Shown: piece after piece, positions 1,346 to 59,352 of the stretch
Layout: every line of letters begins with the position of its first letter
Numbering within the stretch: position 1 is the stretch's first letter
Source: Eledone cirrhosa
Taxonomy: Eukaryota
DNA: 64,000 nucleotides
NCBI GenBank assembly: GCA_964016885.1
Contig: OZ024755.1
Coordinates: 30,132,001 to 30,196,000, forward strand
Reading direction: 5' to 3'
Notes under the pieces: generated by a model
Databases searched by the model: none
Seen by the model: only the letters and a program-made list of their open reading frames with translations
Told to the model about the DNA's origin: nothing
Made by a program: the position numbers and the translations under genes

Positions 1346-1414
<69 letters not shown>

Positions 1415-1456: not shown

Positions 1457-1492
<36 letters not shown>

Positions 1493-1548: not shown

Positions 1549-1549
1549 T

Positions 1550-5417: not shown

Positions 5418-5721
5418 ATATAAATATAGTTTCCATAAATATAGTTTCCATAAATATAGTTTCCATAAATATAGTTTCCATAAATATAGTTTCCATAAAT
5501 ATAGTTTCCATAAATATAGTTTCCATAAATATAGTTTCCATAAATATAGTTTCCATAAATATAGTTTCCATAAATATAGTTTCCATAAATATAGTTTCCA
5601 TAAATATAGTTTCCATAAATATAGTTTCCATAAATATAGTTTCCATAAATATAGTTTCCATAAATATAGTTTCCATAAATATAGTTTCCATAAATATAGT
5701 TTCCATAAATATAGTTTCCAT
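5418..5721. repeat. 15-bp tandem repeat (CATAAATATAGTTTC)x~20
   Basis: Direct reading; source of the METIF/WKLYL ORFs. Confidence 0.95.
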
Positions 5722-20110: not shown

Positions 20111-22645
20111 CATACGGAGAGATGGAGGCGATGACAGTGGGAGTTTGGCTGTTCTTTCACATTTACTTAGGTTACTATTGTATATTGTTATTTACCAATA
20201 TTCATTCAAGGACTGTAGGAGAATTCACAGGAGAGATTTCATATAGTCTTGTAATACATTAATTGTTTCTATTTTAGGCACAAGGCCAGCAATTACCCAG
20301 TACATTACTGGTACTTTATTTTATCGACCCCATAAGGATGAAAGGCAAAGTTAACCTCGGCGGGATTTGAACTCAGATCATAAAGAGACGTAACTCTATG
20401 CTTCAAAGCATGGTGTCCGACCCTCTACCGATACTACCAATCCACCGCCCTTGTAATATATTGATAAGTCTTGTAATACATTAATAAATGAATCTTCTTA
20501 AAAAAAGACCACGTTTGAAAATACGAAGCAAATCTTTTTAACATTCTGACTTAATATATAGCTAATATTCTTTCTGGACATTGATAGATACGTGAAATAT
20601 TTTAATTTTGCGTGCATTGTCGGGCTTCCAAATATTTAAACTTATTTAAATTTGTATTTCTTATTCCACGATGCATCTAACAAACTACAACACTTAGTTA
20701 TCAATTTAGTTTATATCGAACTTTCTGAACATTAGTTTTGTTAGATACATATTTCAAGCAATTGTGATAAACGTGTGAAAAGGGGAGCATCTGTGCACCT
20801 GGAGCGCAACTAGCACCTTGTCGGAAATAATAGTTTATCTAATTTCTGACCAATGTTTAATATAGTCCGTCACATACACATGCTTATTCACACGGATAAC
20901 AATTGATTCTACATTAGGCACAAGGCCAGCAATTTCAAGGGAAGGGGAATGTCGATTAAATCGACCCCAGTACATTACTGGTGTTTTATTTTATCAACCC
21001 CGTAAAGATGAAAGCAAAGCTAATCTCGACGGGATTTGAACTCAGAACGTAAAGGGCCGTGACTCTATGCCGCTAAGCTTGTTGTCCGACGCTCTACCGA
21101 TTCTGCCAATCCACCGCCCTCACACACACACACACACAGATAATAATTGTTTCTACTTTTTGGCACAAGGCCAGTAATTGCCCAGTGCATTACTGGTACT
21201 TTATTTTATCGACCCCGTAAGGATGAAAGGCAAAGTTTACCTCGGTGGGATTTGAACTCAGACGATAAAGGACTGTAACTCTATGCTGCAAAGCATGGTG
21301 TCCAACTCTCTACCGATCACAATACAATGATGGTCTATTAGTTTAACAATCTATATAGCTGGAAAAGTGTCTTAACATTTCGAATGAAAGTCCTTTATTG
21401 GAAAATAGACTGGGAGAGAGAAGAGAGGATGTTTTGGAGAAAAGAAGAACAAAGAAAATAGACGAGAGCAAGAAATAAATAACGGGAGAACGGTAGATAA
21501 GAGAGAAAGCGGGTGTTAGTCAGCCATTTTGAAAAATAAATATTTCAGAACGAAGCATGAGTTTTGAAGAATTATCGAAAGGGAGATAAGCACCAGAGAG
21601 CTACAAAAAAGGTGTGTTCGTTTGTACAAAACTGTGAGAGTATGAAGTGATGGTTCGCCTCAGACCACCATTATAGTAAGGGGGGGGGGGGTCTCATTTA
21701 TGTAGTGTTGTATATGGGTGCGTGTGAGCGAGCTGTTTAGAGGAGGGAGTTGACAGCTCTAAAGTGAGTCAGACACACTAATGTACGTGTTTGCCCATAT
21801 GCACATGCACGCATGTAATTTCGGTCAGAATTAAATGCGTCCATATGCGTACACATACAAGCACAAACATACGTAGAGACACTTCTCATGTAGTACAGAA
21901 GGAACACGGCAGTGATACATGCATGCAAGTCACCGTTTTCTGTCATGATTATGGTATAGGACAGGGGTCTCAAGCATAGGGCTCTAGTAATTTCCCTGAC
22001 TAATTAAGGAAAATTTGAAACGAAAAATATGTCCTATATTCTCTACTAATTTAATAGTATATCGCACTACTTATTATATGCGTATTGATTTTGATTTTAA
22101 AAAAATAGCACTTTATCAGCTGTATTGCACATTGGCGTTATAAATAGTGAAAATTATGCCCCCACATTTCATTTCATTCGAGTCTTTGGGTTTAAGACCC
22201 TTGATCTAGGACGACGACGTGGCGGAAAGCCGCAAAAGATATCGCAAAGCATCACGTTCGGCATTAAAACAGTGCAGCTTACAACTACCGAACCTGGAAG
22301 GATAAAGGCCAATGTGTGCATCAAGAGGTATGGTACCAAGATATAAAGAGGAGTCGGAATAAATACTTCGAAGACTTTACCGGCACCGAAAGAGTCACAT
22401 CACGAAGCCCTACGCAAAACATGCTCACACGAAGGCAGCACACTTATACGAACACATAGACGCGGGCGCACACAAGTGAAGTGTAGAAGTATAATTAATG
22501 TTCGAATATGTGGGATCTCTATAGTAAAGCATTTAATAAACGTCTACAAACACAACCATAAATATGTATCGGTCAATCGAATCCCTGAAATATGTATAAT
22601 GAAATAAATATGGTTTTATAAATATAGCTTCCATTTATTAATATC

Positions 22646-22720
<75 letters not shown>

Positions 22721-22723
<3 letters not shown>

Positions 22724-22927
22724 CGAAGGAAATGTGGTAAGGAACCAGGTGGACCATAACGCACCAAAGTACTCAATACTTAGAGTAGTAGAGTGGGTAA
22801 TAGAAACGAGTAGGACCCCGACGGCTGAGCTCAAGCCGTTTCGACGGCTAATTCTGGACCGGAATTAGTCCAGAATTAGCCGTCGAAACGGCTTGAGCTC
22901 AGCCGTCGGGGTCCTACTCGTTTCTAT
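22721..22927 (-). mobile_element. Family A short element with ~60-bp fold-back, in (TA)n
   Basis: Inverted arms 22800-22859 / 22869-22927. Confidence 0.65.
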
Positions 22928-23072
22928 ATATATATATATATTGTTATGCTTTGGGAGGGTCATGTTGCCAATAATTGCCAATTATTGGCAACATGACCCT
23001 TCGAAAGCATAACAATATCGGTTTCAACACACGTTTTCAGATAAAGAATCTTGCTAAACAAATTCAGAAACG

Positions 23073-23158
<86 letters not shown>

Positions 23159-23741
23159 TTGAAGATGTGTTAAATGGTCACTGTAAAATGATTGTAGTTA
23201 GGAAGGACATCAAGCTGTAGAAATCATGGTAAAGATGCCATCGAGAGGTCAATATCTCTGAATAAGAATGGACTTGGTCCGTGGTTTGCCGTTCAACCCA
23301 TGCCATCATAGAAAGCGGTTGATGATAATGTTGTTTATGATGACGATAGTTATGCATATACGTATGTGTGTGTGTGTGTGTGTGTTCCTCTCTGTGTGTG
23401 TATGTGACGCTGTGTGTGTGTGTGTTTAATCTTGTCTCATATTGTCAAAGTATAGAATATAATTACGTATATCCTTATATCTGGAAATATTCCTAGTCAA
23501 TTGCTAATTCTAATTCTATTCATGAAGAAGTTAGTCAGTATTTTATAAGGAGTGGAAGGTTTGAAAAATGGAAGAAACATAGTAATATTAATACTTGCGG
23601 CTTGCACTTTATCTTTTTCATGTTCTTTCGTACTTAAGGCTCACGATTTAATAGGAAAGGTTTTTATCGGGTTTCAATTGTTCTGAGGTCAACTGAGAAA
23701 TCACGATTTTAAATGTAAACTAGGACATGGTAAAATTACAC

Positions 23742-23798
<57 letters not shown>

Positions 23799-23816
23799 TC
23801 TATCTATTTCTATCTC

Positions 23817-26800
23817 AATCTAATAAAAACACAAGGGCCTAACTTCACCCAGGCAGGGGATTTCCCCCACCTCAAAATGATTAAGGCCCCACAGGACACC
23901 TATAAAACTTTAAAAAACAATTTTAAAGAGGACGTGGGTCCCCCCTGCGTCGGGCCCATTAACCGCGTCCTCCTAAAAAAACTATCCCACCCCCTCCCCA
24001 AACACCCTCACAACTCCAAGCTCCCCAACCACACAACACACTGATGCCCCCACACTTCCACAAACCACCACCCCACCCAACAACCCATCCCCCACCCTAA
24101 TGGAAATTGTGCAGCCCGATACCCGGGACGCAGAGAGGTAAGTGCCTTTTCTCTTCACCACCAACATGGCTATGCTAAGAGTAGGCTGTTTAAATGCGCG
24201 TGGCCTGGGCTCAACTTGGAAGCAAGCAATGCTTCTAAATGACCTCAGGTCACAACGTATAGATGTGATGGTTATTTGCGAGGCCCGGATCAGCAACGTG
24301 CGACAGCTGTCCCCCACCTTTGATGACTTTGAGATGCACGCATCTCTCTGTCAGCCCGGAGGTGGGGGTGGAGTTGTCGTTCTGCTGCAAAAACATCTGG
24401 GTCTCGCAACACAGATGGTACATTTGGACCCGGAGGGTCGACTAGTGGTTCTGGACCTTGGCAGTGGTAAAGGCGGAGCGTTTAGGTTGGTAGCCGCCTA
24501 CGGCCCTTTCGGGTCAATGCGGCCGGACTTCTTCCATCGTCTGGAGACTTTTCTAGGGACGTCCCGCTCCTTGCTATTAGTGGGGGACTGGAATGGTATC
24601 CTAGATGCACGCTGGGACTACGTAGGGGCCTGCCCCGATAGAGAGGGGTGTAATAGCCTCAAAGGATTAATCGGTCGATTTGACCTGGCCGATAGATATC
24701 GACTAGATTTTCCGACTGCGCCAACCTGGACTTGGGCAAATCGTAGCGGATCATCTAGGTCGTACCTAGATAGGTTCTTAGTTAGAATTAAGGATAAGGA
24801 CTTTTTAAGTTGTCCAAAAATGCGCATGGTTGGCTATTCAGACCACAAATTAGTGACCTGCATGGTCAACCTTGACAGAACTCATAGACAGGGCCCCGGT
24901 TACTGGAAGCTCAACTTGTCCTTGCCGGCAAGTAGAGCCTACAGGAATCGGATTAGTACGTTAGTTAAGGAACGGTTGACTGGAGCGATCGTCAACAGCA
25001 GGTGGTGGGTATCTCTAAAGAGAGAGATTAGAGTAGTCTCGATAGAATTTAGTAAGGTTCTAGCTGCGGATAGGAATAGGAAGGAAAGGGAGCTAATAGA
25101 TAGAGTAGAAGAGGCAATTAGAAGCGGCGACGTGGCCAGAGTGCTAGCGTCGAGAACGGCTTTGAGCCAGTTTTTCGACGCGAAGCACGAAGGCTGCGTT
25201 GTCCGAAGTAAAATACGTGCTCTGGGGAACGAGGGGACCAAATCTGTTAGCTGGGCCCGCGTGACAGAGGCCAACAGTGGAACTAAATCCACCATCCGGT
25301 CTTTGCGAGACCTGGATGGACGGGCGATTCTTGAGCCTAAGCAGATGTGTGAGGCCTTTCAAAGGCACTTTGCCCGACTGTTCGGGAGGGGCGGGGAGCC
25401 GGTTGGGAACGTGGACTTCGGTCCATACCTCGACGGCCTGCCGCGCCTCTCGGACAGGGAGGCGAAGTCCTGCGAGGAGCCGATTTCGGCCGCTGAGATA
25501 GAGGACGTGCTGAGCCAATGCGGCAAACGCAAATCCCCGGGTCTCGATGGTCTTCCTTACGAATTATATCTAGCTATGCCGGACTTGTTCCCCGATCTCC
25601 TCGAGGCGGTCTACTGCAACTGGCAACAGAACGGGAGAATTCCCTGTACTGTGACCAAGGGCGTAGTCACGCTAGTGAGGAAGGACGAGAACAAGGGGGA
25701 CGAAATAAGTAACTTCAGGCCCATAACACTGCTAAATACAGAGTTACAGATTTTGGCCAAGGTGCTAGCAAAGAGGTTGGCGCTTGTCGTGGGCAACCTG
25801 GTGGGAGATGCGCAGACATGCGCTATCCCGTCCAGGTCCATCCATGACAACCTCCACCTCATGCGATACATCATAGAGAGGGTTGGGAACGAACCCGGCT
25901 TTGGTGGGGCTCTGATCAACTTGGATCAATCTAAGGCGTTCGATAGGGTCGACCATGGTTACCTGGATGCGGTGCTAGCGGCGGCAGGCTTCGGACCCGT
26001 TTTCAGGGGCTGGATCACTGCTATGCACAGCAGCCGCATCTGCTCTAGGGTCAAGGTGAACGGCTACCTCTCGGAGCCGTTCAAAATCGCGCGGTCCATC
26101 CGACAAGGGTGCCCTCTCTCCTCCCTTCTGTATGTGTTGACTCTCGAGCCACTACTGCGGAAGTTGGAGTTGTTGCAGGGCATCCCTTTGGAACCGGGAT
26201 TGCGGAAAGCGGTGTCGGCCTACGCCGATGACGTTACAGTAATGGTGTCGACGGCCTCCGAAATCGAGGCGGTCGGCACCTTACTGGAGGAGTACGAAAA
26301 GTTCACAGGGGCTAAGCTGAACCGGGACAAGTCGATCGGTTTGCAACTCGGCACGTGGAGGGGCAGACCGATGCCCTCCGATAGCGTCGTCGGACGCTGG
26401 ACGGAGGGCCCGGTGAAGTTGCTCGGGGTCTGGTTCGGACTGGACCTCCAGGTGGAGAAAAACTGGGCGGAGGTTACGAACAGGGTGTTTGCACTGACCC
26501 AGAAGTGGGCCAGTTGCAAACTATCCCTGAAAGGTCGGGCGGAGGTGGCGAACACCTACATAGCGTCCGTCATCTACTACCGCCTGACCGTAGTGCCCTG
26601 CCCAAGGGAAACCCTCACCAAGATGGAGCGCGCGCTCTTCCAATTCCTTTGGAAGAGGCGGGCTCCTATGGTGAGGAGATCCATCTGCTGTCAACACCCT
26701 TCGAAAGGAGGGCTGGGGATGCCGTGGCTAATGATGCGTAAACACGCATTAAGGCTACGGCACCTCTACGTATTCCTCACCGGACAACCGGTGTGGGCCT

Positions 26801-27868
26801 CGTTTGTGAGACGAACCTTTCCCAGACTCGTCTCACTCACCGAGCTGCAATCCTGGGTCAAGCAAAGACCGAGAAAACTGGGCGCCTGGCACACTGAGTG
26901 TGCCCAGGCGCTCACCGCCCTCTGGCAGGCGGATCCGGTTGTCAGTGGAGACTCCACCGCAACATTCTATAGAGGGCTGGTACGCAGCAGGTGCGACGAC
27001 GCCCTAGGAGAAGCCCTAGACATGGAGGAGGACGAACTGGCCAGCCTGTTCGGTAGGACATTCAGCCCGGGACCTATGGACAACTTCCAGAAGTCCCTGG
27101 CCTGGCAGTGCTACCGAGGGGCTTTACCCGTTCGAGAAAGGCTCTACAGACACGGGCGCCCGGGTAGGGACCCCGCCAAAAAGATCTGTCCCAGATGCGT
27201 GTGCGACGAGGAAACCGTTGCACACGCATTAGTACACTGCTCGGGCGTAGCCGATCTGTGGGGCTATGTCGAACAACTGCTGTCAAGGGTGGGACCGATC
27301 CGGTTGACCACCGAGTCTATTGTAATGATCAAGCCGCCTCCCCCCTTCAAAGATGAAGCAGAGGCGGTGTTTCTGTGCGTAATAGCCATGGCGAAAGAGG
27401 TTGTATGGTGGACGCGTCTGAAAGGACTGAGGTCGGGCACCTTTCTCTCTGGCCAACAACTGGTCCGTTTCTTCCGATATCATTTCGGAAGAAGGATCAG
27501 GATGGAGAGAGAGGTGCTGCACCCCAGCCGTTTCTATGAAAGATGGGTGAAAGTGGCGAGAATGGCCCGTGTGAATGGGCCTTCACTCTACATCAGACTA
27601 TAGGTGAGGAATATGAAAGACCAAGGGAGCACCCCTTCTCTGTGCTCCTGAGGAGAAGGGTTGCACACTTTTTTCGGGGGTGTGTGCGACCCCCCAAGGC
27701 GCCTCCTCTCTATTGAGGATTTTGTTAAAAAAAATTTTATTTTTTGTTATATCTTATTTTATTTTTATATTTTGTTATTGCCTCCTCCTTATTGAGGACG
27801 CCTTTTTGTGTAAACTCCCCCCTTTGTACTTGTCCCACTTTTGATGCCCTAGTGGCAAATAAAAGAAA
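23817..27868 (+). mobile_element. Tx1/L1-clade LINE, 5'-truncated within ORF1, ORF2 intact
   Basis: ORF1 tail (probable stop TAA 24139-24141), ORF2, then 3'UTR ending GTGGCAAATAAAAGAA; (TC)/(TCTA) repeats on both flanks. Confidence 0.92.
24166..27603 (+). CDS. LINE ORF2: APE endonuclease + reverse transcriptase + CCHC zinc knuckle (1145 aa from ATG 24166)
   Basis: APE: LNARG, ICE, AYGP, GDWN, YLDRF, SDH. RT: KSPGLDG, FRPITLLN, DQSKAFDRV, RQGCPLS, YADD. Knuckle: CPRC..ETVAHALVHC. Confidence 0.95.
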   Translation: MAMLRVGCLNARGLGSTWKQAMLLNDLRSQRIDVMVICEARISNVRQLSPTFDDFEMHASLCQPGGGGGVVVLLQKHLGLATQMVHLDPEGRLVVLDLGSGKGGAFRLVAAYGPFGSMRPDFFHRLETFLGTSRSLLLVGDWNGILDARWDYVGACPDREGCNSLKGLIGRFDLADRYRLDFPTAPTWTWANRSGSSRSYLDRFLVRIKDKDFLSCPKMRMVGYSDHKLVTCMVNLDRTHRQGPGYWKLNLSLPASRAYRNRISTLVKERLTGAIVNSRWWVSLKREIRVVSIEFSKVLAADRNRKERELIDRVEEAIRSGDVARVLASRTALSQFFDAKHEGCVVRSKIRALGNEGTKSVSWARVTEANSGTKSTIRSLRDLDGRAILEPKQMCEAFQRHFARLFGRGGEPVGNVDFGPYLDGLPRLSDREAKSCEEPISAAEIEDVLSQCGKRKSPGLDGLPYELYLAMPDLFPDLLEAVYCNWQQNGRIPCTVTKGVVTLVRKDENKGDEISNFRPITLLNTELQILAKVLAKRLALVVGNLVGDAQTCAIPSRSIHDNLHLMRYIIERVGNEPGFGGALINLDQSKAFDRVDHGYLDAVLAAAGFGPVFRGWITAMHSSRICSRVKVNGYLSEPFKIARSIRQGCPLSSLLYVLTLEPLLRKLELLQGIPLEPGLRKAVSAYADDVTVMVSTASEIEAVGTLLEEYEKFTGAKLNRDKSIGLQLGTWRGRPMPSDSVVGRWTEGPVKLLGVWFGLDLQVEKNWAEVTNRVFALTQKWASCKLSLKGRAEVANTYIASVIYYRLTVVPCPRETLTKMERALFQFLWKRRAPMVRRSICCQHPSKGGLGMPWLMMRKHALRLRHLYVFLTGQPVWASFVRRTFPRLVSLTELQSWVKQRPRKLGAWHTECAQALTALWQADPVVSGDSTATFYRGLVRSRCDDALGEALDMEEDELASLFGRTFSPGPMDNFQKSLAWQCYRGALPVRERLYRHGRPGRDPAKKICPRCVCDEETVAHALVHCSGVADLWGYVEQLLSRVGPIRLTTESIVMIKPPPPFKDEAEAVFLCVIAMAKEVVWWTRLKGLRSGTFLSGQQLVRFFRYHFGRRIRMEREVLHPSRFYERWVKVARMARVNGPSLYIRL

Positions 27869-28070
27869 TATATCTATTTCTATCTCTTTCTCCCTCTCTC
27901 TCTCTATCTATCTATCTATCTTCTCTCTCTATCTCTCTCTCTATATATTTATATATATATATATATCTCTCTCTCTCTATCTATCTATCTGTATCTCTAT
28001 CTCGCTCTCTCTATCTGTGTGCCTAACTATCTGTCTGCCTGTCTATCTGCCTACCCATCTATATATCTGC

Positions 28071-30316
28071 TATAGGCATGCCAGACTTGTTCTCTGGCGT
28101 CCTCGAAGTAGTCTACTGCAACTGGCAGCAGAACGGGAGGATTCCCAGTTCTGTAGGCAGAGGCGTAGTAACGCTGATCAGGAAAGATGAGAGCAAGGGG
28201 GATGAGATAAGCAATGTCAAGCCCATAACTCTGCTCAACACAGAGTTAAAGATTTTGGCCAAGGTGTTAGCAGCGAGGCTGGCGCTTATCGTCGAGAACT
28301 TGGTAAGGGAAGCGCAAACGTGTGCAATCCCGACCAGGTCCATATACGACAACCTCCACCTCATGCGATACATCATAGAAAGGGTAGGGTGTAAACCTGG
28401 CCTCGGTGGGGTTCTGATCAATTTAGATCAGTCTAAGGCATTTGATAGGGTCGACCATCAATACTTGGAAGCGGGGCCGGCTTCGGTCCCGTCTTCAGAG
28501 GCTGGATCGCTACCATGCACACCAGCATCTGCTCGGCAGTCAAGGTGAATGGCTACCTATCGGAGCCATTCGAAATCATGCGTTCTATCCGCCAGGGATG
28601 TCCCCCTCTCCCCCTTTCTGTATGTACTGACTCTCAAGCCATTACTGCTGAAGTTGGAGCTATTGCAGGGCATCCCGATCGAACCAGGACTGCGGAAAGC
28701 AGCGTCAGCCTATGTCGACGACATAACCATAATGGTGTCGAAAACCTCGGACATTGGGGTAATCGGCAACCTATTACAGGAATACGAAACGTTGACAGGA
28801 GCAAGACCAAACCCAAACAAGTGTGTCGGTTTGCAACTCGGCACATGGAGAGGCAAACCAATGCCTTCCGACAGTGTCGTTGGACGCTGGAGGGAAGAAA
28901 CGGTGAAATTGCTCGGGGTCTGGTTTGGTCCAGACCTCCAGGTGGACAAGGACAGGAACGAGGTCACGGCGAAAGTGTTGCACTCACCCAGCAGTGGGAT
29001 GAGTGCAAACTCTCCTTGAAAGGTCGAGCGGAGGTGGCGAACACTTACATAGCGTCCTCATCTACTACCGCTTGACAGTCGTGCCTTGTTCCCGCGAATA
29101 CCTCACCAAAATGGAATGCCTACTCTTCAAGTTCCTCTGGAAGAAACAGTCGCCATTGGTGAGGAGATCCACCTGCTGTCAACACCCTTCTAACGGAGGG
29201 CTGGGCATGCCGTGGCTGATGATGCACAAACACGCGCTGAGGCTACGCCCTCTCCAGGTATTCCTGACCGGCGAACCGGTGTGGCTGTCGTTTGTGAGAC
29301 GAGCTCTTCCACAATTCGTCTCACTAACAGAGCTGCAGTCCTGGGTCAAGCGGAGACCGAAAATGGGCGCCTGGCACCTCGAGTACCTTCAGGGGCACAC
29401 AGCCCTCTACCAAGCGTAAACGGCAATCAGCGGAGACTCCACTTCGACATTCTATATCGGATTATCGGGGAAAATATAGGCATCGAGGAATACGAACTGA
29501 CCAGTCTGTTCGGGAGGACTTTTCGTCCAGGGCCTATGGATAACTTCGAGGGGTCTCTGGCCTGGCAGTGCTACCGAGGAGCTCTACCAGTTCGAGACAA
29601 AATCTACAGGCACGGACGCCCTGGTAGAGATCCTGCCAAAAGGACCTGTCCAAGATGCGAGGAGGACATCGAAACCGTTCTGCACGCAATTGTTCAGTGC
29701 CCAGGGGTGACCGACCTGTGGAATTATGTCGAACAGCTGCTGTCACATGTGGGACGCATCCAGTTGTCAGCCGAGTCCATTGTGAGGATCACCCCGCCGC
29801 CTTCATTTAAGAACGAAGGAGAGGCGGTTTTCCTCTGTCTGGTGGCTATGGCGAAAGAGGTAATATGGTGGACGAGGTTAAAAGGACTGAGGGCAAACAC
29901 CTTTATCTCCGGACAACAACTTATCCCCTTCTTTAAGTATCACTTCAGAAGGAAGGTGAGAGTGGAGAGAGAGGTGCTACACCCCAGTAAATTCGCTGAA
30001 AGGTGGGTGAACGTGGCAAAAATGGCCCGAGTGAATGGGCCTTCTCTGTATACAAACCTGTAGGTTGAGGAAGATAAACAGATGGAAGACAGGAACACCT
30101 ACAAAACGTGTTCCTGGTGTTGGGGGTTGTTCTATCCACGGGGTGTAAAACAACCCTGCAGTAACGTTCCCCCCCCCCTACTGGGGATTTCAATTGTTAT
30201 TTTATTATATATAGTTTATTGTTATTTATTAATGTTAAAGTTATTTTATGTAAAACCCCCGCCGTCACGTCTTGTAATGTCCCATTTTTGTACGCCCCTG
30301 TGGCAAATAAAGAAAG
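28071..30316 (+). mobile_element. Second, diverged Tx1/L1 LINE copy, 5'-truncated and frameshifted
   Basis: ORFs 28078, 28549, 29003 and 29212 are successive frames of ORF2 (YVDD); 3' end TGGCAAATAAAGAAA. Confidence 0.9.
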
Positions 30317-30330
30317 ATATCTATCTATAT

Positions 30331-30745
30331 AACTTAATAGCACCACTTGGAGAAGTGTTTCAGGATCTGGACGCCATGGCACACTCAAGTAGAGAGTTAT
30401 TGTTTACGGAGACATGTCCGAGTGTAGGGGGTTTATCCGGGATTTCTTGGAGGAATTTGTCCAAAGACATTTTGAATTTTATGGGATCTGTTTCTGTTTT
30501 AATGTCTTTTGGTGTAATGTTAAAGAGAGCGGGACCAGTTGAGGTGAAATAATTGCGCCGTATTGTTGTCATGAGATGCGAGTTTGATTTTTGTGGTGAG
30601 TGGATAGCACGGGACCCAAAGCTTAGGTTTAGTTTAAAGATGATGCAAACATCATTTGGGCAATGCTGATGGAATATTTTCCACATCATGCAAATGATGT
30701 AGCACTCACGGCGACGTTGGAGAGAATAAAGTCCGAGCTGAAGAC
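30331..30745 (-). mobile_element. CR1-like LINE 3' fragment
   Basis: LGLYSLQRRRECYIICMMWKI..FTSTGPALFNITP..FKMSLDKFL, a CR1-type C-terminus. Confidence 0.75.
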
Positions 30746-31091
30746 GACCAAAAGTAGAAACAACAATATGCCATGCGAAGAGCGTCTCTGAATTTTGTGC
30801 AAGATTCTTTCATGATCGCAGTAGCAGCGGCAGTGATAGTCTCAATTGAAGTGATGCAAGTGTTAGATTTTGCTACTAGTGGTAGTAATGGTTGTGGTTG
30901 TTACATGATTTGCAGTAAGGATGGTAGTGGTGGTGGTGGTTTTCGCGTTGAGTGGAACAAAGCTATGGCAACTATGACATCCCTGATTGATGTGGTGGCG
31001 GAAGTTTCGTTATGTTTATTATAGGTGGCTACATTGCATTCAATAATAGAGGTCGATATTAATCGCAGCAACAGCAGCTTCTGTGGGCAAA

Positions 31092-31129
<38 letters not shown>

Positions 31130-31130
31130 T

Positions 31131-31162
<32 letters not shown>

Positions 31163-31297
31163 ACCGTCGTTACTCTCTTCATTTTCTTCTTCTGCTGCTG
31201 CTGCTTGTCGCAATGATGAAAGTAATATTGCCAAAGATGTCTCTCTATTCATTTTGATTTCATCAATTATATTTTTTCTTATACAGAAACAGACAAT

Positions 31298-31367
31298 ATG
31301 AAAACTTTAATTGTAATTTTCCTGGCAATGTTCATTTCTTATACCTTCGCTAATGAAGACACTAAAA
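31298..31367 (+). CDS. Coding exon 1 of small secreted/GPI mucin-like protein (signal peptide MKTLIVIFLAMFISYTFA|NEDTK)
   Basis: Acceptor TTTTTTCTTATACAG ends at 31286; ATG 31298; phase-1 donor A|GTAAGT at 31368. Confidence 0.75.
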
Positions 31368-31421
31368 GTAAGTAAAACCCCTTTACATAATCTTTAACAA
31401 CTTTTCTCCATAATTAATTCT

Positions 31422-31453
<32 letters not shown>

Positions 31454-31547
31454 CAGAGAGATGTCAACATGATTGGACCTGATATTTTTATCTAAAGACA
31501 TTTTTTTCCAATCCCCCCCCCCCCCATCTATCTTATTTCTCATTCTT

Positions 31548-31584
31548 TCTTCTGATGAAGGACTAGCGTCCGAAACGTTAAGAC
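31548..31584 (+). ncRNA. Minimal type I hammerhead ribozyme (intronic, sense)
   Basis: TCTT-CTGATGA(31552)-A-GGAC-TAGC-GTCC-GAAA-CGTTA-AGA; core identical to the 6542 copy; part of short element ~31526-31670. Confidence 0.8.
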
Positions 31585-31668
31585 ACTCTTTCTACTATAT
31601 CAAGTGTTAACCTAATATATCCCTTCCATATACTGTACCGATTGTGTTGTTATTTCTGTTTACCTTTT

Positions 31669-31766
<98 letters not shown>

Positions 31767-31811
31767 ATTAAAACCCCTTTACATAATCTTTAACTTGTCT
31801 CCATAATTAAT

Positions 31812-31863
<52 letters not shown>

Positions 31864-33090
31864 TTGCATGAACTGGATGAGTCTTCTATATTGATTTTCT
31901 CCTCTTGTAACGTTCCTTCATCATCTCTAGCGAGTTTCCTTCTTTCATTTCTTTCTAAACATCATAGATCCTCTGTACCCAATGTCCATAAACCATTAAC
32001 ATGTAACATTGTACTGTGTGTGCACCCATTCTATAATCCACTATTCCGTCGAAGGCTGCAGAGGTAATTTCTCCACACTGTTTTTATTCAGTCTGCTATA
32101 CATTCGGATTACCCTTTGCCATTACTAGTTTGTTCCCCTGGATAAAAGAATCTTTTACATACTTCTATGGAGCTTAACTTGGATTGAAAAAACATCTTTT
32201 ACTGGCGATCTATTAAGTAATGAACTATACCTGTTCATCTGCCACATACAACATTTCGTTTCTGTTAGTTTGGCAAGAGTTGATGTGGGATCACATGCAA
32301 ATAAAGTTCCCCATGTTCCCATGAGCCCATTGAGTTGAGTGTTTAACTTGTCCTTTTCTATAAACTGAGCATGCACATTCCTCTAATCACAGCATGGTCC
32401 TGACATCTTTCTTACTTTGGTATTTAATATGTTTACTGTAAGATCTTTCAAAGTTTTGTTTCCATATCTGGAATTTCTTCACTAAATCACCCACAGATTC
32501 GGCTATAAGTACTAAGTGATCAACAGAAATTCCAAGGGAGAGCCGGTCTTAAACTCCTCTGTAAATGGCATGGAGAACTAATCGAGTCTTGATGAACATT
32601 AAACCCATACATAAATTCCTCTCTAAACTCATTGCCTACACTCTCTTTGCTAACTACACCTTTGTACAAAATACTTAGCTATGCCTAATTTACTTAAACA
32701 TCACTAGATCAGTCAGTTTAATGGCTTTTGAAGCTGCCACCTCTAGAACATCACATCTTATCCCGTAGGTTTATAATTATACTGCTATAACAGTCACTTT
32801 ATATGACACCAATATGTATTATTTGGTTGATTATGCTCAACCTCTATCAGATATTTTCAGTATTTTCATGCATTTGATGGTTTAATTGACCATATAACTG
32901 TTACATTTGACAGCAACTGCTTGTGTTGTGTCAACTGGGGTTAGTCCCCCTTCCTTCCAGTCATTCCCCACATTCAGTAACTTCTTATAGTAACATGTCC
33001 AAGCCTCTTCCTTCTGAGCCTTGATTTGGTTAAGTGTTCCAGTGATTTTTCCAACACACCTTTCTCCATCTTCTTGACCCACACTGAAAC
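31864..33090 (-). mobile_element. Highly decayed RTE-like LINE RT remnant
   Basis: Minus-strand fragments such as LVLIAESVGDLVKKFQIWK and AQKEEAWTCYYKKLLNV; many stops. Confidence 0.5.
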
Positions 33091-34175
33091 ATGGCTTATA
33101 GGCTTATAATGTATCCATCTATGGATACTTAACTCCTGATCGAACTATGGTTAATTCTAGAGAGAGAGGGGTGGGTGGACCGAGGAAGAAAGGACTCCTA
33201 CACTGGACTGGTATTTAATTTCCTGACATCGAAATGATGAAGGGCAAAATTAACCTTAGAGTTCAGGGAATAAATATATATAATATAATATAATATAATA
33301 TATAATATAATATAATATAATATATAACATAATATAATATATAATATAATTGTTTATACTATTGGCACAAGGCCAGCAATTACCCAGTACATTACTGGTA
33401 CTTTATTTTATCGACCCCGTAAGGATGAAAGGCAAAGTTAACCTCGGTGGGATTTGAACTCAGATCGCAAAGGGACGTAACTATGCTGGAAAGCATGGCG
33501 TCTGACCCTCTCTTGATACTGCCAATCCACCACCCTTTGCATATCATAATATTAGTAATTCGTGATTAAGATAGTTTAGAGCAAAAATAGAGAACACCTT
33601 AATTAGAGTCCATATCCATTTTTCAGTCATAGTAAAAAAGTACACCATAGTAAAAAGTACTCCAGCCGTAGACATCCTATAAGTTTTATAGACATATAAA
33701 ACTATATTATATAATGTACTCTTTCTTTATTTTTGACGGTAAAATGCACTGAGGAAAAAAATGGATGCTTTCTCAAGCAACTCGATCGTCCCGTTAATGG
33801 TTGCCTCCTTGGATCGATGATTTAAATCTGTACTCAAGCAGTAATATGTTAAATTCTTTCCATTTAAAGTAATATTTGATTAAATATTCCATTTCTATTT
33901 CTAATAATGATTTCTTGTATAGGCACAAGGCCAGCAATTTGGTGGGAGGGGAAAGTAGATTAAACCTACCCCAGTACGTTACTGGTACTTTATTTTATCG
34001 ACCTCGTAGTGATGAAAGGCAAAGTTAACCTCGGCGCGATTTGAACTCAGACTGTAAATGACCGTAACTCTATGCTGCAAAGCATGGTGTCCGACTCTCT
34101 ACCGACACTGCCACTCCACCGCCCTTTTCCTATTTCTAAGTGACAACAGTATCTTTTATTTCTGTAATTTCACAG

Positions 34176-34288
34176 CATCAACTTTGACTTCAACTTCAAA
34201 TTCAACGGACGACGCATCTACAAGCACTGTCGCGGTGTCAACTACTTCATTACCCCCCTCTACTACTAGTGGTGGTTCAAGATATTTG
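34176..34288 (+). CDS. Coding exon 2 of small mucin-like protein (Ser/Thr-rich)
   Basis: Acceptor TTTATTTCTGTAATTTCACAG; phase 1 matches exon 1; (T)STLTSTSNSTDDASTSTVAVSTTSLPPSTTSGGSRYL; phase-0 donor TTG|GTAAGT at 34289. Confidence 0.75.
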
Positions 34289-35755
34289 GTAAGTTTGTAT
34301 CTATATAACTAACTCATATCATAATGTATTAAAGGGAGGAGTGCGGGACTGTGTCTTTTATCCCATTTGTAAAATAATTTGGATTACTTTGAATAAATAA
34401 TTGTTTCTACGTTTGGCACAAGACCAGCAATTACCCAGTGCATTACTGGTACTTTATTTTATCGACCCCGTAAGGATGAAAAGCAAAGTTAACCTCGGCG
34501 GGATTTGAATAAATAATGAATGAATATTACAAAATTTATCTACTAAATTTCGTAGATCTTGATTAAATATAAATAATTTTATTTCTTATTTCAAGATTCA
34601 CTTCTTTAAAATTTTCAAATGTCAACACTTCCGGTTAGCGCCCGTTATATCATAACACTTATTACATCGCTTATGTAAACGTTCATATATTTGCATCGTT
34701 ATATAAGGTTTATATTTCCGTCGCTAGTTTTCTACTAATGCAGTTTATATATAACATCGTCTTTTTTTAATTTATCATGGATTACTTTACTGATTACAGA
34801 AGAAAGTGTAACACAGTCTCTCTTCAATTTCTGTGCATATTGTCAATTACGATTTTATTTGACGTATCATATACATATGCATATATACTTGCGTATAATA
34901 TCAATATGCACACTACACATGCTAGCAGAAAACCACCCTTCACTTGATTTGTGCTCAAAATCCTGAGAAATCAAATGAGTCTGTAATTTAAACATTGTAT
35001 AGGTAATTTCAGTAATTTCAGTAAATTTAAACATTGTATAGGTAAATACACAATTGTATAGGTAATTTCAGATTTTCAAATCACCATGTTACCTCTATGT
35101 GAGACACTTTCATGTGTGTATCTTACTTTATGTAAGCAATAGCAGATTAAACGATTTGCTTAATCAATGGAAAGTGTAAACGAGTCGCGTTTATGATTTT
35201 TTCATACAGAGATCTGCACTGTCTAAATCTTAAAGATAGTTGTTTCTACTTTAGGCACAAGGCCAGGTATAAATCTTAAAGATAATAATAGTTGAAAATA
35301 TATGAAATATTATACTTGTGCGTAAGACTTAGTGCATATGACATCATAAATGAAGACGAAAATGTTTTCAAATAGAAATAATGAACATCCTAGCAAAACA
35401 TATTTATTTTTTTAACGTTTTAGCTATATATTAATAAGATTGATTAAAAATATAAACAAAATTTTAAAAGATATTTGAGGTAGTCCAAATCAAATATTGA
35501 AAGACGTTCTATTCCATGATCATCCATTCAACTGAGCCAAGTGCCCAAATGTTGACGAGAATTAATTATTTGGACAAATATTGTAGATAATTCCAAACCT
35601 ATTTTAGTGTTATAATCTCCTCAATAGAGTATACCATACACCAAGTTACTACAACTAGACTATATGTATTATAGTATAAATTATTATATTATTCATTTAA
35701 TTATATATTGTACAGCCGATGCTCATAAATGTTTTTTGTTTTCTTTCTTTTGCAG

Positions 35756-35815
35756 ATTACACCACCAATCATGATTGTGGCGGGAACTTTTACTCTAATG
35801 CATCGATTTTTGTGA
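35756..35815 (+). CDS. Coding exon 3 (hydrophobic C-terminal, putative GPI signal) ITPPIMIVAGTFTLMHRFL*
   Basis: Strong acceptor TTTTTTGTTTTCTTTCTTTTGCAG; phase 0; TGA at 35813-35815. Confidence 0.7.
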   Translation: MTPPIMIVAGTFTLMHRFL

Positions 35816-35901
35816 AAACATTTAACTCAATCATTTATCATATAAAATAATTTTTAATAGGTTTATAAAACATAATTACGTAATTATATATACGCACACA
35901 C

Positions 35902-35939
<38 letters not shown>

Positions 35940-36003
35940 AGCATATTATAAATGTACACATGTAAGTATGTTTTTGAAACGGTGTGCTAGTTTGAAATTA
36001 GAA

Positions 36004-36231
36004 ATTAGAAATTAGAAATTATAAGCTTTCACCGTATTTTAGACTAAAGAAATTTCTAGCCTGATAGTGGGGTTTATAACCCTCGGAGAAATGGAAAAAA
36101 GATGAGTGTTGCCGTACATGGGAGCAACACTCATCTTTTTCCATTTCTCCGAGGGTTATAAACCCCACTATCAGGCTAGAAATTTCTTTAGTCTAAAATA
36201 CGGTGAAAGCTTACAATTTCTAATTTCTAAT
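36004..36231. repeat. Near-perfect ~108-bp inverted repeat with 11-nt loop
   Basis: Arms 36004-36112 and 36124-36231; followed by (TA)n. Confidence 0.9.
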
Positions 36232-39200
36232 ATATATATATATATAAAACCTTTTACTTTCCTGACTTAGATGATTTAAATCTACATATTTCAATATTTT
36301 CCATCTACCTGTTATATACACAAGCGAATGCATACCGTTATACTACGGCAAACGTAGTTTGGTTTCTTGTATGGAGGAGCGAAATAAGGAAGGAAAGAAA
36401 AAATAAAATAAAATGAAACAAACAGTCGTACGATAAAACAGGAAACAAATGAAGTATTCCAAAGTTAAGAAAATAAAAACAATAATGTATGTCCGTAATG
36501 AATCCATATCATGTGAACCAAATTTCAAATCTTTCAAAAGAAAACTAGCAAGCATTTTTCAGATATAAGTCATCTGAATATATACAGGTTTTAACTAATA
36601 AAAATATTGAAATTAAGCTTCGTTATAATTGATTTTAAAAAATAAATAAACAAACAAAAAACAATAATGTAATAATATAATAATGGAATAAACATTATGT
36701 AAATAAAGTTAATAAAAAATTATTTGTTTATCTATTCGTTTTATGCATAGTTAGGAAATAACGTATCTGCTATGGCCTACTCCCTGTCATCCTGAAACCG
36801 AAGACGTGACCGGGTACCTTAAAAGCCATCTAAGGACCATGGTGATGATTTAACTTTACCACATGACTAGACCATGATGAAATTTGATGTCAAAACATAA
36901 ACTGTACTGTTTTGATGCCGCCAATTCACTACCCTTAATTGGTGCTGTATTTATCAATCAAGTAAGGTTGAAAGGCAAAATTGACCACCAAAGTTTTGAA
37001 AGCAGAACGTGAGCAGTCGGAAAAACGCTGTAAATATCGGTGGAGATTCAGGTTAAATTTCTTCGGGAGTCGAGCTTTGAATAAACTGCCTCAATGATTC
37101 AAGACTCTGTATTCTATCTTTCTGTCCTGCTTGGACTAATCTATGAGCGAACGTATTTCTTCAGTGAATATTCCAGACTAAAACTCTCCAATATGTCCAC
37201 TCCATTTTATAGAAGTTGAGGTATTATTTATGAAAAATTTAGCTCTTTCTTGAGGCCTATTTCAAATTGGCAGGGAAGGCAGTCTTTATACAGCCTTCGA
37301 TATACTAGAAATAGCAGCAAATTCTTCCCAAAATCACACCATACTGCGTTAGAATATAGATATAATATGCCTGAAAGAATTGCGTGGTTACGGTGGAAAC
37401 GGCTTTAACTGCAAATCTTTAAGAGTAGAACTAATATAGGTTTCTTATATAGGCACAAGGCCAGTGAGTTTGGGTGAGGGGAAAGTCGATTAAATCGACC
37501 CCAGTGCGTGACTGGTACTTTATTTTATCCACCCCAAGAGGATGAAAGGCAAAGTTAACCTCGGCGGGATTTGAACTCAGATCATAAAGGGCCGTAACTC
37601 TTTGCTGCAAAGCATGGCGTCCGACTGTCTACCTATACTACCAATCCACAGCCCTCAAGAGTAGAACTAATATAGATATACAAAAAATGTTATCAGAAGC
37701 AAACTGACCTAAATATTCACGTATAATAATTGCTTCTACTTTTGGCACATGGCCAGCAATTACCCAGTGCATTAATGGTACTTTATTTTAGCGACCCCGT
37801 AAGGACGAAAGGCAAAGTTAATCTCGCCGTAACTCTATGCGTCAAAGCATGGTGTCCGACCCTCTACCGATACTGCCAACCCACCGCCCATTTCACGTAT
37901 AATAATATGGCTTAGTGGTTAGAGCGTCGGGCTTACAATCGTGAGGTTGTAAGTTCTCTTCTCGGACTGGGCATTGCGTTGTGTTCTTGAGCAAGACACT
38001 TTACTTCACATTGCTCCAGTTCACTGAGCTGTAGAAATGAGTTGCGACGTCAATAGTGCCAAGCTGCATCGGCCATCACCTTTCCCTTAGACAACATCGG
38101 TGGCGTGGAGAAGGAAGACTTGTATGCATGCTGGTCTTCCAAAACAACCTTGCCCGGACTTGTGCCTCGTAATCACAGAGGGGAGTGGGGGTCAACCTTT
38201 CTTTCTCTTCTATCATGGTAATTTCATAGCCTAGGATAAACACAGCGTGAAAGAAGGATATTAAGAGATGGAAGACAAATTTCTAACTTGCTGAAATTCT
38301 ACATATGGTTGATATCGTCATCGGTATGCAGTTATTATTCATCCCCGATCAAGCAGAATCGTCCTTGTGACATGGCATAGTTAAGATTATGCTCCCTAAT
38401 GTGCCTTTCCGTTAAAAAAAAGAAATGACAGTAGAATGCGATTTCTAGCACGATGAGGGAGTACATAATGGCTTTCTCGTAGGTTCGCCGCTTAGTAGAT
38501 ATTGTTTAGCTGAGCTTTCATCGAGAAAATGTATAATAAAGGTCTTCCAGTATTAGCCATCCTGTTTCCTTATTTTTATATTCCGAAGGATGAGATAGAA
38601 ACACACTCGTTTGTTTAGCCGGCAACTACACTATGGCTGTTGTTGTTTTGATTGTCTTGTTCCAAGTCTGCTCTGACTAACCAAGTCTGTGATCAAATAT
38701 GTTATAGGCATGAACAAATCTTCCATCTTACCGCATTGTTTTTCGGGAACTAGATTATTCAATATATTCCTACTTTTCAGTATGAGCAACAGGGTGTTAT
38801 TTGAAGTAAATTTGGCTACTATTTCTACCAGATGGTGGCACCAGGACGAAGTTAACTCGCAGCTCATGAAACCATGCTGTTGTTGTTTAAGCCTCAAACC
38901 GAGCTAGATCGAACAGACCTACGATAAAATGCGTTTAGACACAACCATCTTGCGTTTTTATGTATTTATGAGGATTACATGTTTAAACTTCATTTGAGAA
39001 AATTTAGCTGTTATCACTTTTTTGGTAGGTCGAGTAACATTATGAAGGCTGCTTCACATTCGCATATTGTTGTTTGTCAAAGCGTTCATGAAACAATAGC
39101 ATCTATAATTTCGGAAATCAGTAGACGTGTCTGAAGAACATGCGAATCTAGAGTCAGGTTCGATCCACATACAGATCGCACCTCGAGCTGTTCGCCGGGG

Positions 39201-39337
39201 AAACAATTGTAATATCTAATAAATTGAGTTCCGATGCATCACTGATTCTTCGTTTTCCATCCTATCATACTCTGCTCCGTATGAGCATTGAGTGCTCAAC
39301 CGGCATACCGCCTATGGACGCATCCTAGCTACCATAA

Positions 39338-39390
<53 letters not shown>

Positions 39391-39855
39391 CTGTGTACTA
39401 GTGGTGCTTATCTTTCAGGCAATACCAAGATGGCAGACGTTATTTACTTGAGATCTCAGGTGCAAGTGAGGTAGTAATAATTGTTTCTACTTTAGGCACA
39501 AGGCCAGCAAATACCCAGTGCATTACTGGTACTTTATTTTATCGACCCCGTAAGGATGAAAGGCAAAGTCAACCTCTCATCCTTACGGGGTCGATAAAAT
39601 AAAGTACCAGTAATGCACTGGGTAATTGCTGGCCTTGTGCCTAAAATAGAAACAATTATTACTACCTTACTTGAGGTAGTAATAATGTATTGATATATAT
39701 ATAGAAGGAATTGGTAGTTTACTTGAAGCATTGTGTAGTGAGGTATAAACAATGCATGTTTGGAGATATATAAATGCAAAAGATAACGCTGACAATTAGT
39801 CTTTGACCTTAATTTCTTAGCTACCCACTTCGAACACTGGATTAACCCCTTTACT

Positions 39856-39893
39856 CTCCTCAGACGAAGAGATATTATCTCGAAATATCAGGA
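39856..39893 (+). ncRNA. Degenerate hammerhead motif (core CAGACGA)
   Basis: TCCT-CAGACGA-A-GAGAT-ATT-ATCTC-GAAA-TATC-AGGA: stems I and II pair, one core mutation. Confidence 0.5.
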
Positions 39894-40050
39894 TATATGA
39901 ATAAATTAAGGTAAAAGACTAATTGTCATGCGTTATATTTTGCATTTATATTATATCTCCATACCTGCATTGTTCTGGTCTTCTAACTTCAAACGTATAT
40001 ATATATATATATATATTTGATAATCACGTTAGGAGTACCTCCTGTGTTTC

Positions 40051-45548: not shown

Positions 45549-48310
45549 CTCAGCAGCGCCACCGCTCCTCTGTTTCCCTACAGAATAATCTATCTAAATA
45601 CGATCTGGATGACCCGATGCGGTTTGCCCATGTCCACATTGGCACATTCGGATAATCCAGTCTATACCTGTCAGACAGTTCAAAACGTCTGAGCAGGTTG
45701 TTGAGTCTTTTACACCCTCCTCCTCTGTCTACTAACCCCACATAATCCCAGCGTGCATCTAAGATACCGTTCCAGTCGACCACTAACCCTAAAGATTGGG
45801 ACGTTCCAAGAACGGTCTCTAAACGTCTGAAGAAATCTGGCCGTACTGCCCCTGTTGGGACGTAGACGGCTACTAGCCTGAAAGCATTGCCTTCGCTGCC
45901 GGTCACGTCCAGCACCACCGACATACCTTCTGGGTCCAGGAAGATGGCCCGTATGGCGAGATCCAAGCCTCTCCGAAAAAGCACAGCATCTCCGCCCACC
46001 GATCCCGGACGACTGGGAGATTCGTATATATCGTAGCCACGGAAGATCGCTGCGAAGGCTCGTGCTTCGGAGATTCTGGTCTCGCTGAGGGCCACGACAT
46101 CTATGTTTAGTGACCTGAGGTCGTTGAGCAGGTGACCCTGCTTCCAAGATGACCCCAAGCCACGTACATTTATACTGCCTATTCTAAGTACGGCCATGCT
46201 GGATGAGGAAGGACCACTAATCTTGATCGTGTGGGGAAGGGACAGTAGAACCGTCCCTTCGGCTGGTCATGGGTGTCTCCAAGATGATATCTGTATATAT
46301 TCTTTTGGAGAGTGACCCCCTGAAATCCCCAACTGCGTTGGGGAATTTTTGCTTTAATTGTTTATAGTCTTCCAGTTTAATTTCGACAATTATAATGTTT
46401 TGGGTAGTGTTCTTGGTGTTGGTGGGGTGTGGTAATTTAAGTCTATAATGTCTGTGTTGTTTTATATGTTCCATTAATCCTTTGTGTGTGATATTTATGG
46501 CTGTGTACTTATTTTAGGGGGGGGGGTGATTTTGTTACGGTTTTCTTGTTGCTGTTGGGTGTGTGTGTGCTTTGTTGTGTTTGCGATGTTGGTGTTTTTG
46601 GTGATGCTGGTGGTGTGGTTGTTGTTGGCGGTGATGCTTGTGGTGGTGATGGTGATGGTGGGGGTGTTGCTGCAATTCTCCTTGCAGCCTTCACCCCCTC
46701 TTTCTTTACTTTCGCTTTTGGAGGGAGAAGCTGTGGTATTTTTCGTTTGTTCTTTTCTTTTTCGACAACCGTTTTTCCCTCCTCAACCGCCTCATACTCC
46801 ATGTCCGACTGTGAGAGGTCGGGGAGGGGTATGAGTTCTACCCTCTGATTTGTCTTTGTTGTTGTTGGTGGTGGTGGAGACTAGTCTGCCGTTCTTGGCA
46901 CAGGTGCAGCTAGTGCAACTGTTTCTGTTGCTGCAGTTGCCGCCGCTGTTTTTGTTGTCGGTGGCTTTGGTTTGGGTGCCACGGACGTTGTTCTCCTACT
47001 CTCTGTAGAAGCTCCCGATTTTTTCGTTGACTGCTCTGTTTCTGGTGGCAGCGGTTCCGGCGTTTGAAGGAGGGGGTCCTTCGCCTTTGTTATTTTCTGC
47101 GAGCAGAAGGCCCTGAGGTGAGACTTCGATCCACAGTTGAAGCACTTTGGGCGCTTCCTTCCACAGATATGGGAAGTTGAGAGCCATTCCCGAGGTCTAT
47201 TACGTCGGGAATAGCGCTGATGCAGTCCTGGTCAGTTTGGATGAGCATCTCCATTCCAATACCGGACCAGTCCTCTCTCCCAAACTTCTGTACCTGCAGA
47301 ATGGTTGTTCTATCCTCGATGCCCGCAAGAACAGACAAAACCTCCAAGGCACGGGTACATAGTGCGGGACCTGGGTTACCCTGACCGTTGTAATTTTTTT
47401 CCCGCAGTAAAATGGGACCAACGTTATGTCATCACTCCGTACGGTCCTCAGTGAGTGCTATTTTGCTTCCTGGGTGGTAGCGAAAAGGACGTCCACAGTA
47501 GCATATTTCTTGCCACGGGTGATGTGGGTTTTCCGTGCCCACACAGTTCCCAAGGCCTTTTGGATTTAGGCCTCCGAGGCTCTCTCCACACGACGAGATT
47601 TCGTGGCAATTGTGCAGTATGACACTATGCGTCGCTCTTGTTCCTCCAGGAAGTCGGTTGGTGGTTTCAAGGACACTGAAAAAATTCAGTTCTGGTGACC
47701 ACGTGTCTTGCGACCGCCATCTCCTCCTCTGTGATCAGGACTGTTTCTATGTTGTGAGCCACCTTTGCAAAAGAGATGGTCCCTTTTTCAGTGGCATCAT
47801 TGTTGCCGCCGCTACTGTTGCTACTGGTCTTGTTGTTGGTGCTGTTGCTGTTGCTACTGCTACAAATGGTGTTGTTGGTGTTATCACTGTTGCTGATGGT
47901 TGTGCCTTTGGTGCCGCCGTTGCTGTTGTTCTCGGTGCAATTTGTATTGCTGGTGTTGGTGCATTTGTTGTCATTTTTTCTGTCGTCTGCATTTTGGTTG
48001 TCGCTGTTACTGCTGTGGTTGGTGTAGTGACTTTTTTTTCAAAATTAGTGTTCTCAGTATTATTGTCACTGCTCTCTTTGTTCACGTTGTTTGTGGTGGT
48101 GTTTGTTATATCAATTTCTGGTTTCATTTGGAGAAGAATCTCCAAATCCATTCCTGACCAGTCCTCTCTTTCTGTCTTTTTGATATCTTGGGGGGGGGTC
48201 TGTTCCCTCCTCGATTACGCATCCCAGGAGCCACCATATGTTCATTCCTGGTGGGATCCTAGGAATGCGGACCTTTACTGTCCGTTTGCCCATGTAGGAC
48301 GGGTGCATGG
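45549..48310 (-). mobile_element. Tx1/L1-clade LINE 5' part: decayed ORF1 region + APE N-terminus of ORF2, 3' deleted
   Basis: ORF 45550..46197 (MAVLRIGSINVRG, SETR, VYVP, DWN, SYLDR) is homologous to ORF2 at 24166. Upstream are ORF1-like fragments (VPFYCGKKITTVRV; MGKRTVKVRIPRIPP) and Thr/Pro-rich linkers; possibly two ORF1 remnants. Confidence 0.8.
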
Positions 48311-56685: not shown

Positions 56686-56791
56686 AGTATATATATATAT
56701 AGAGAATACTTCTTTCTGGACCAAGTCCCGTTTTCCTTCTAATATCATATCATTTAAACCTACTGTGATATCTTGATGCGTCATAAACAAC

Positions 56792-57230
56792 AGCAGCAGG
56801 AAAAATAATTGTTTCTACGTTTGGCACAAGGCCAGCAATTATCCCAGTGCATTACTGGTACTTTATTTTATCGACCCCGTAAGGATGAAAGGCAAAGTTA
56901 ACCTCGGCGGGATTTGAACTCAGATCATAAAGGGAGGTAACTCTATGCTTCAAAGCATTGCGCCCAACCCTCTACCAATACTGCCAATCCACCGCCCTGC
57001 AGCAGGAGGAAAAATAATTGTTTCTACTTTAGGCACAAGGCCAGCAATTATTCCAGTGCATTACTGGTACTTTATTTTATCGACCCCGTAAGGATGAAAG
57101 GCAAAGTTAACCTCGGCGGGATTTGAACTCAGATCATAAAGGGAGGTAACTCTATGCTTCAAAGCATTGCGCCCAACCCTCTACCAATACTGCCAATCCA
57201 CCGCCCTGCAGCAGGAGGAAAAATAATAAT
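56792..57230 (-). mobile_element. Tandem duplication of a family 1 SINE with its flank
   Basis: Two near-identical ~210-bp units separated by GCAGCAGG(AGG)AAAAATAAT. Confidence 0.85.
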
Positions 57231-59152: not shown

Positions 59153-59352
59153 NNNNNNNNNNNNNNNNNNNNNNNNNNNNNNNNNNNNNNNNNNNNNNNN
59201 NNNNNNNNNNNNNNNNNNNNNNNNNNNNNNNNNNNNNNNNNNNNNNNNNNNNNNNNNNNNNNNNNNNNNNNNNNNNNNNNNNNNNNNNNNNNNNNNNNNN
59301 NNNNNNNNNNNNNNNNNNNNNNNNNNNNNNNNNNNNNNNNNNNNNNNNNNNN
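59153..59352. other. Assembly gap (200 N)
   Basis: Direct reading. Confidence 1.

Follow-up and report, generated by a model that had tools for sequence, protein, structure and literature searches.

The stretch of Eledone DNA analysed here, called the window throughout, is 64 kb long and carries on its plus strand a real, spliced gene of three coding exons, whose predicted product is a protein of 80 residues. The features found at this locus are given below.

31287..31297, plus strand: likely 5' UTR portion of coding exon 1, taken from the sequence only
31298..31367, plus strand: coding exon 1, with the predicted signal peptide (residues 1-18) and the initial residues of the mature part
31368..34175, plus strand: intron 1, 2808 nt, phase 1, GT..AG, containing microsatellites and SINE-like copies
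34176..34288, plus strand: coding exon 2, with the Ser/Thr-rich segment, the N-glycan sequon, the candidate omega site S55/G56 and the start of the spacer
34289..35755, plus strand: intron 2, 1467 nt, phase 0, GT..AG
35756..35815, plus strand: coding part of exon 3, with the end of the spacer, the candidate hydrophobic tail and the stop codon
35816..35905 (the extent of read placement), plus strand: 3' untranslated region, with bin depths of 22,573 and then 15,394 in read run X4
36004..36231, no strand assigned: near-perfect inverted repeat with arms of about 110 bp, downstream of the stop codon

A spliced gene of three coding exons

Splicing of the three intervals in silico gave one frame of 243 nt encoding the 80-aa protein, which is also the longest ATG frame of the modelled mRNA and has an A at position -3. 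Both introns begin with a GTAAGT donor and end with a pyrimidine-rich tract and CAG, and the 80-codon frame, the donors, the acceptors and the phases (1 and 0) all agree with the model proposed in an earlier, sequence-only reading of this DNA. The two predicted targeting signals are on separate exons, which flank a pure Ser/Thr exon. When both strands of the 64-kb window were scanned for signal-peptide-like ATG exons that end in a donor, exon 1 was the sole one. Of the 154 open acceptor-donor frames in the window, exon 2 alone reached a Ser/Thr content of at least 45% (57%, the runner-up having 35%). This holds for an acceptor rule that required 9 pyrimidines in 15, as the stricter version with 11 recovered no Ser/Thr exon at all, exon 2 included. 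The window is rich in microsatellites and contains about 20 SINE-like copies as well as LINE remains, one LINE having an intact frame of 1153 residues; these repeats seem to resemble octopus repeats. Two LINE frames and the read-through of exon 1 had no exact counterpart in the protein collection. No other host gene was recognised in the 64 kb, no tRNA genes were found, and none of the three exons has a paralogue within the window.

Reads were taken from four public runs of one study (X1-X4), all of which contained the exon 3 region and none of which was recorded as RNA. Runs X1-X3 were from the same sample, with about 1.4 Gb of contigs per run, and X4 was from a different sample with 88 Mb of contigs. 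The read contigs were placed on positions 34126-35905 only, and exon 1 lies outside that stretch. In X4, the last 15 nt of exon 1 (31353-31367) were found as a loose end directly before 34176 in at least two contigs, the first 17 nt of exon 3 (from 35756) as a loose end directly after 34288 in at least two contigs, and a 12-nt loose end at the start of exon 3, in at least one contig, was identical to the end of exon 2. None of these strings is found a second time in the window. The sequence-only reading had named the junctions 31367/34176 and 34288/35756 as the ones to be looked for, and both are present to the base in the X4 contigs; its choice of exon 3 as the splice partner of exon 2 is borne out by the contigs that carry this junction.

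The depth of X4 also followed the exons. The contig at 35755-35849, covering exon 3, had a depth of 12,985 and the contigs in the unique part of intron 2 had depths of 14.3 and 15.3, an exon-to-intron contrast of about 850-900-fold, although contig depth reflects expression only poorly. Across exon 2 the bin depth was 22,000-29,000. In X1-X3 the depth was low and even, about 6-23 over exon 3 and the unique bins of the intron (42-48 in two edge bins), which is as DNA would behave, and it was zero across 34126-34305, exon 2 included, a gap for which a record filter may account. None of the base differences listed falls inside exons 2 or 3. From the loose ends at the junctions together with the exon/intron depth contrast, we infer RNA as the source of X4, and the predicted splicing appears to be the main spliced form among the loose ends listed, in this one run of one study.

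Predicted protein and its likely fate

The features of the signal peptide and of the GPI signal were scored by hand from published rules. The N-terminus has Lys at position 2, an h-region with a mean hydropathy of 3.46 and, relative to cleavage after residue 18, Thr at -3 and Ala at -1, and a cleavable signal peptide of residues 1-18 is predicted by this hand rule, in agreement with what had been proposed before. In published GPI signals (10.1101/838680; PMC5054108), a polar linker leads to an omega residue that is small and has G/A/S at omega+2; a spacer follows, and the sequence turns hydrophobic at about omega+10, a placement described in the NetGPI preprint (10.1101/838680). Among the seven omega candidates with a small residue at positions 45-65, two satisfied the omega+2 rule, S55 and G56, and these coincide with the earlier placement of the omega site near S55. 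The linker before the site has a hydropathy of -0.46, and the hydrophobic stretch begins at I66, which is exactly omega+10 for G56. The core of this stretch, I66-M76, has 11 residues with a mean hydropathy of 2.15 (1.5 for I66-L80), and Y60-M76 forms an uncharged run with a mean of 1.57, followed by H77 and R78. The fit to a GPI signal on these residues is good but not certain, because the core has 11 residues and is then followed by His and Arg. This shortness of a tail ending in His/Arg had been raised as a reason for doubting the anchor; the 11-residue core and H77/R78 are indeed present, but the concern appears to be a minor one, since Y60-M76 is uncharged and I66-M76 is well placed.

The predicted mature part has 37-38 residues and a mass of 3.7 kDa, with 22 Ser/Thr among 37 residues (59%), one sequon (N32) and no Cys. 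The sequence-only reading had likewise counted 22 Ser/Thr and one sequon, and these counts hold, with the Ser/Thr in residues 19-55 and the sequon at N32. The peptide is short, about half Ser/Thr and without a folded-domain match, which is the design of a small mucin.

With a probability of about 0.65, the 80-residue product is likely to become a GPI-anchored and heavily O-glycosylated glycan scaffold of 37-38 residues on the outer membrane. In the ER, the signal peptide would be removed after A18, the transamidase would cut at S55 or G56, and the tail of 24-25 residues would be exchanged for GPI. The sugar mass would exceed that of the 3.7-kDa backbone, because N32 and many of the 22 Ser/Thr would carry glycans; O-GalNAc glycosylation has been described in octopus, including that of rhodopsin (PMC6272458; PMC8699351). 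The product would be a short glycan brush, which may shield or lubricate the surface and offer sugars to lectins, and the anchored peptide might be shed by phospholipase.

The candidate tail, with its short hydrophobic core of 11 residues and H77/R78 after it, counts against a GPI scaffold, and it would suit a secreted glycopeptide of mucus or matrix, in which the signal peptide is used and the tail is not used for GPI, serving perhaps for self-association. High abundance is typical of gland products, and the apparent abundance in X4 is high, though depth is a poor measure of it. We consider secretion unlikely, as the small-residue triad, the polar spacer and the hydrophobic stretch at omega+10 are arranged and spaced as in a GPI signal. 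The same tail could also be read as the anchor of a minimal type I membrane mucin, with Y60-M76 spanning the membrane and the last four residues in the cytosol. The positive-inside rule for membrane spans would be satisfied by H77 and R78 after a run of 17 uncharged residues, but prolines 64-65 interrupt the segment, its strongly hydrophobic part has 11 residues, and the mean of 1.57 over residues 60-76 is low for a span, which makes this topology improbable.

The 5' end of the gene was considered as well. An acceptor-like pyrimidine tract with CAG, its last base at 31286, lies 11 nt ahead of the ATG and points to a further exon that is probably located upstream of 31287. The scan for the donor of such an upstream exon gave five candidates, none of them decisive, because the matrix used put the two true donors of the gene below its own cut-off. 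Because the frame is open from this acceptor to the ATG, with no intervening in-frame stop, coding sequence in the unseen exon could extend the N-terminus, and the 80 residues would then be the C-terminal end of a longer protein. We regard this as quite improbable: with A at -3, the ATG stands directly before a basic residue, after which come a hydrophobic core and a cleavage motif, and the words of exon 1 had no match in proteins of 87-2000 residues, although this last point is weak evidence. A spliced non-coding RNA or a DNA retrocopy with an incidental frame is highly improbable even though the run type of X4 is unrecorded, as the predicted signal peptide, the top Ser/Thr exon (1 of 154) and the GPI-like tail are in one frame over two introns, and the lack of any exon 3 excess over intron in X1-X3 disfavours a high-copy retrocopy.

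Homology searches and comparison with known small glycopeptides

The homology searches were run exon by exon, and Pfam was searched with each exon separately, with reduced power as compared to the whole protein. The word search with exon 2 among proteins of 38-123 aa gave five candidates, none of which passed, and the word searches with exon 1 among proteins of 26-86 aa and 87-2000 aa gave no match. The phmmer (HMMER) scan of 1.84 billion protein representatives returned two matches, a hypothetical protein of a tubeworm and an archaeal Ig-repeat protein, both rejected as tandem-repeat artefacts in which 9 and 17 weak stretches, respectively, had been summed. There were no matches in PDB, and an Atlas match of 0.76 to a cluster of viral mucin-like glycoprotein G was below the lead level of 0.9 and was read as composition. 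Pfam includes models of CD24 and CD52, and no Pfam family was found for any of the exons at E values up to 10. The CD24 and CD52 genes have two coding exons each, whereas the gene described here has three. The earlier statement that no homology is claimed stands, as no relative was found in the word searches, HMMER, Pfam, PDB or Atlas.

The power of these searches was estimated by a simulation with random substitutions and 200 copies per divergence, in which indels and the choice of cluster representatives were ignored. At divergences of 10, 20, 30 and 40%, the phmmer threshold was reached by 197, 162, 85 and 19 of the 200 copies, and the three-word condition by 198, 172, 106 and 48 of them. 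From these detection rates, a close orthologue is probably absent from the collections searched, unless its divergence exceeds about 30%. The gene is apparently an unannotated orphan gene belonging to a known design class. Since most orthologues diverged by up to 20% would be detectable and none was found, the predicted peptide is CD24-like in design and not a member of the CD24/CD52 family.

Several known glycopeptides have comparable designs. Plant arabinogalactan (AG) peptides come from tiny GPI-anchored precursors and serve as glycan scaffolds, but they carry hydroxyproline-linked arabinogalactan and their mature peptides are shorter than that of Eledone. The mature peptide of CD52, with 12 residues, is one third as long as the predicted Eledone peptide. 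CD24, a mucin-like peptide with a GPI anchor, has 31-34 residues and bears N-glycan sites along with numerous O-glycan sites (PMC10821995), similar to the small mucin-like GPI design and the 37-38 residues predicted here. The action of CD24 depends on sialylated glycans and Siglec-10 (PMC7379889), and sialic acid is described as very limited in invertebrates (PMC6272458), so that an action through sialic acid and Siglecs would be unlikely in this case. TcSMUG of Trypanosoma cruzi is encoded by very small frames with a signal peptide, a Thr-rich core and a GPI signal, and its mature backbone is about 7 kDa with up to 50% Thr (PMC3828161); the design is the same as that predicted here, with 3.7 kDa and 59% Ser+Thr. 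However, TcSMUG is a protozoan multigene family, whereas the Eledone gene has introns and no paralogue in the 64-kb window, and no sequence match to TcSMUG appeared in the exon-2 word search or the phmmer scan. Because TcSMUG shares the CD24/CD52-type design, an invertebrate example becomes less surprising. The likeness to CD24/CD52 put forward in the sequence-only reading holds for the small-mucin design, but it is one of several parallels. The Eledone peptide would act like CD24 or TcSMUG through convergent design.

The uncharacterised octopus marker gene obimac0019980 is similar by description, being cephalopod-restricted and encoding a largely disordered protein with a signal peptide; that protein was classed as globular with a signal peptide, and the E-value of 3e-88 to its orthologue suggests that it is longer (10.1101/2022.06.11.495763). 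No matching description was seen in two octopus single-cell papers (10.1101/2022.06.11.495763, PMC9712504), whose supplementary marker tables could list the gene anonymously. In a literature search with subscription journals mostly outside its scope, neither an octopus GPI-anchored mucin-like cephalopod-specific gene nor an invertebrate GPI-anchored counterpart of CD24/CD52 was found.

The gene appears to be absent from the protein collections searched and yet is spliced and seemingly abundant, and it represents a type of short, low-complexity, putative surface gene that can be skipped by annotation. If the anchoring is true, the peptide would be a candidate cell-surface marker for a group poor in such markers, and an invertebrate animal would join the lineages in which a tiny GPI peptide serves as glycan scaffold.

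3' end of the transcript and the downstream hairpin

The depth of X4 was high up to 35905, the limit of the stretch covered. TATAAA is found at 35841 and again at 35864, and AATAAA first appears at 36402. The hairpin formed by the inverted repeat at 36004-36231 would lie within the 3' UTR only if the transcript reaches this AATAAA. We regard as improbable, and put forward only as speculation, an extended role in which the product would be an abundant octopus 'self' glycopeptide, independent of CD24/CD52 in its evolution and recognised by a lectin of the host on blood or nerve cells, while a long, editable double strand in the 3' UTR would adjust its dose; the peptide would be the first known of a class of tiny GPI-anchored glycopeptides overlooked in cephalopod annotation. 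All seven Rfam matches in 28000-40000 were under the gathering score, and the microRNA matches on the hairpin were rejected for this reason. The arms of the repeat are identical at 109 of 112 aligned positions, the fold has a z of -29.9, with none of 200 shuffles being equally stable, and the repeat is present as a single copy in the window. Both this hairpin and the probable upstream exon, indicated by the acceptor-like CAG that ends at 31286, had been overlooked in the earlier reading.

Upstream of the gene for the putative mini-mucin

The start codon of this gene (31298) is preceded by an acceptor-like tract, recognized from sequence only, and therefore a further putative exon would lie upstream. 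Directly upstream of the tract there are only repeats and LINE remains. The best-scoring donor-like site upstream of the gene, at 24137 by a base-frequency matrix that put the gene's two true donors below its cut-off, is located immediately ahead of an intact LINE frame, which encodes endonuclease, reverse transcriptase and zinc-binding domains in the Pfam domain search.

31240-31297: region with the acceptor-like tract, which ends at 31286
24142-27603 (+): intact LINE frame, 1153 residues
about 27900-30100 (+): degenerate LINE copy
about 700-2500 (-): degenerate LINE copy
about 45550-46300 (-): degenerate LINE copy

Introns, exon 2 and the region after the stop codon

A SINE-like repeat of 150-210 bp was dispersed over 2688-61825 in about 20 copies (72-95% identity), several of which are held by the introns of the gene. 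Cover by the three public runs of DNA-like depth from one sample was absent at 34126-34305, including exon 2, and the remaining stretch to 35905 was covered; this hole is possibly due to filtering of records. A near-perfect inverted repeat, which adjoins a (TA)n run, lies downstream of the stop codon and ahead of the first AATAAA (36402). It was found once in the window and is a candidate for either a MITE or a local inverted duplication, and it would form a long double strand if transcribed.

36004-36231: inverted repeat, arms of about 110 bp, short loop

Tandem repeats and assembly gap

The 51-bp repeat has one open frame per strand, and its + frame encodes 17-residue repeats rich in Ser/Thr/Asn, for which the Pfam search gave no convincing match.

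3187-3922: 51-bp tandem repeat, 14.5 copies
5420-5721: perfect 15-bp repeat, 20 copies
49642-50589: 35/65-bp minisatellite
56791-57227: tandem pair of SINE-like copies
59153-59352: assembly gap, 200 N
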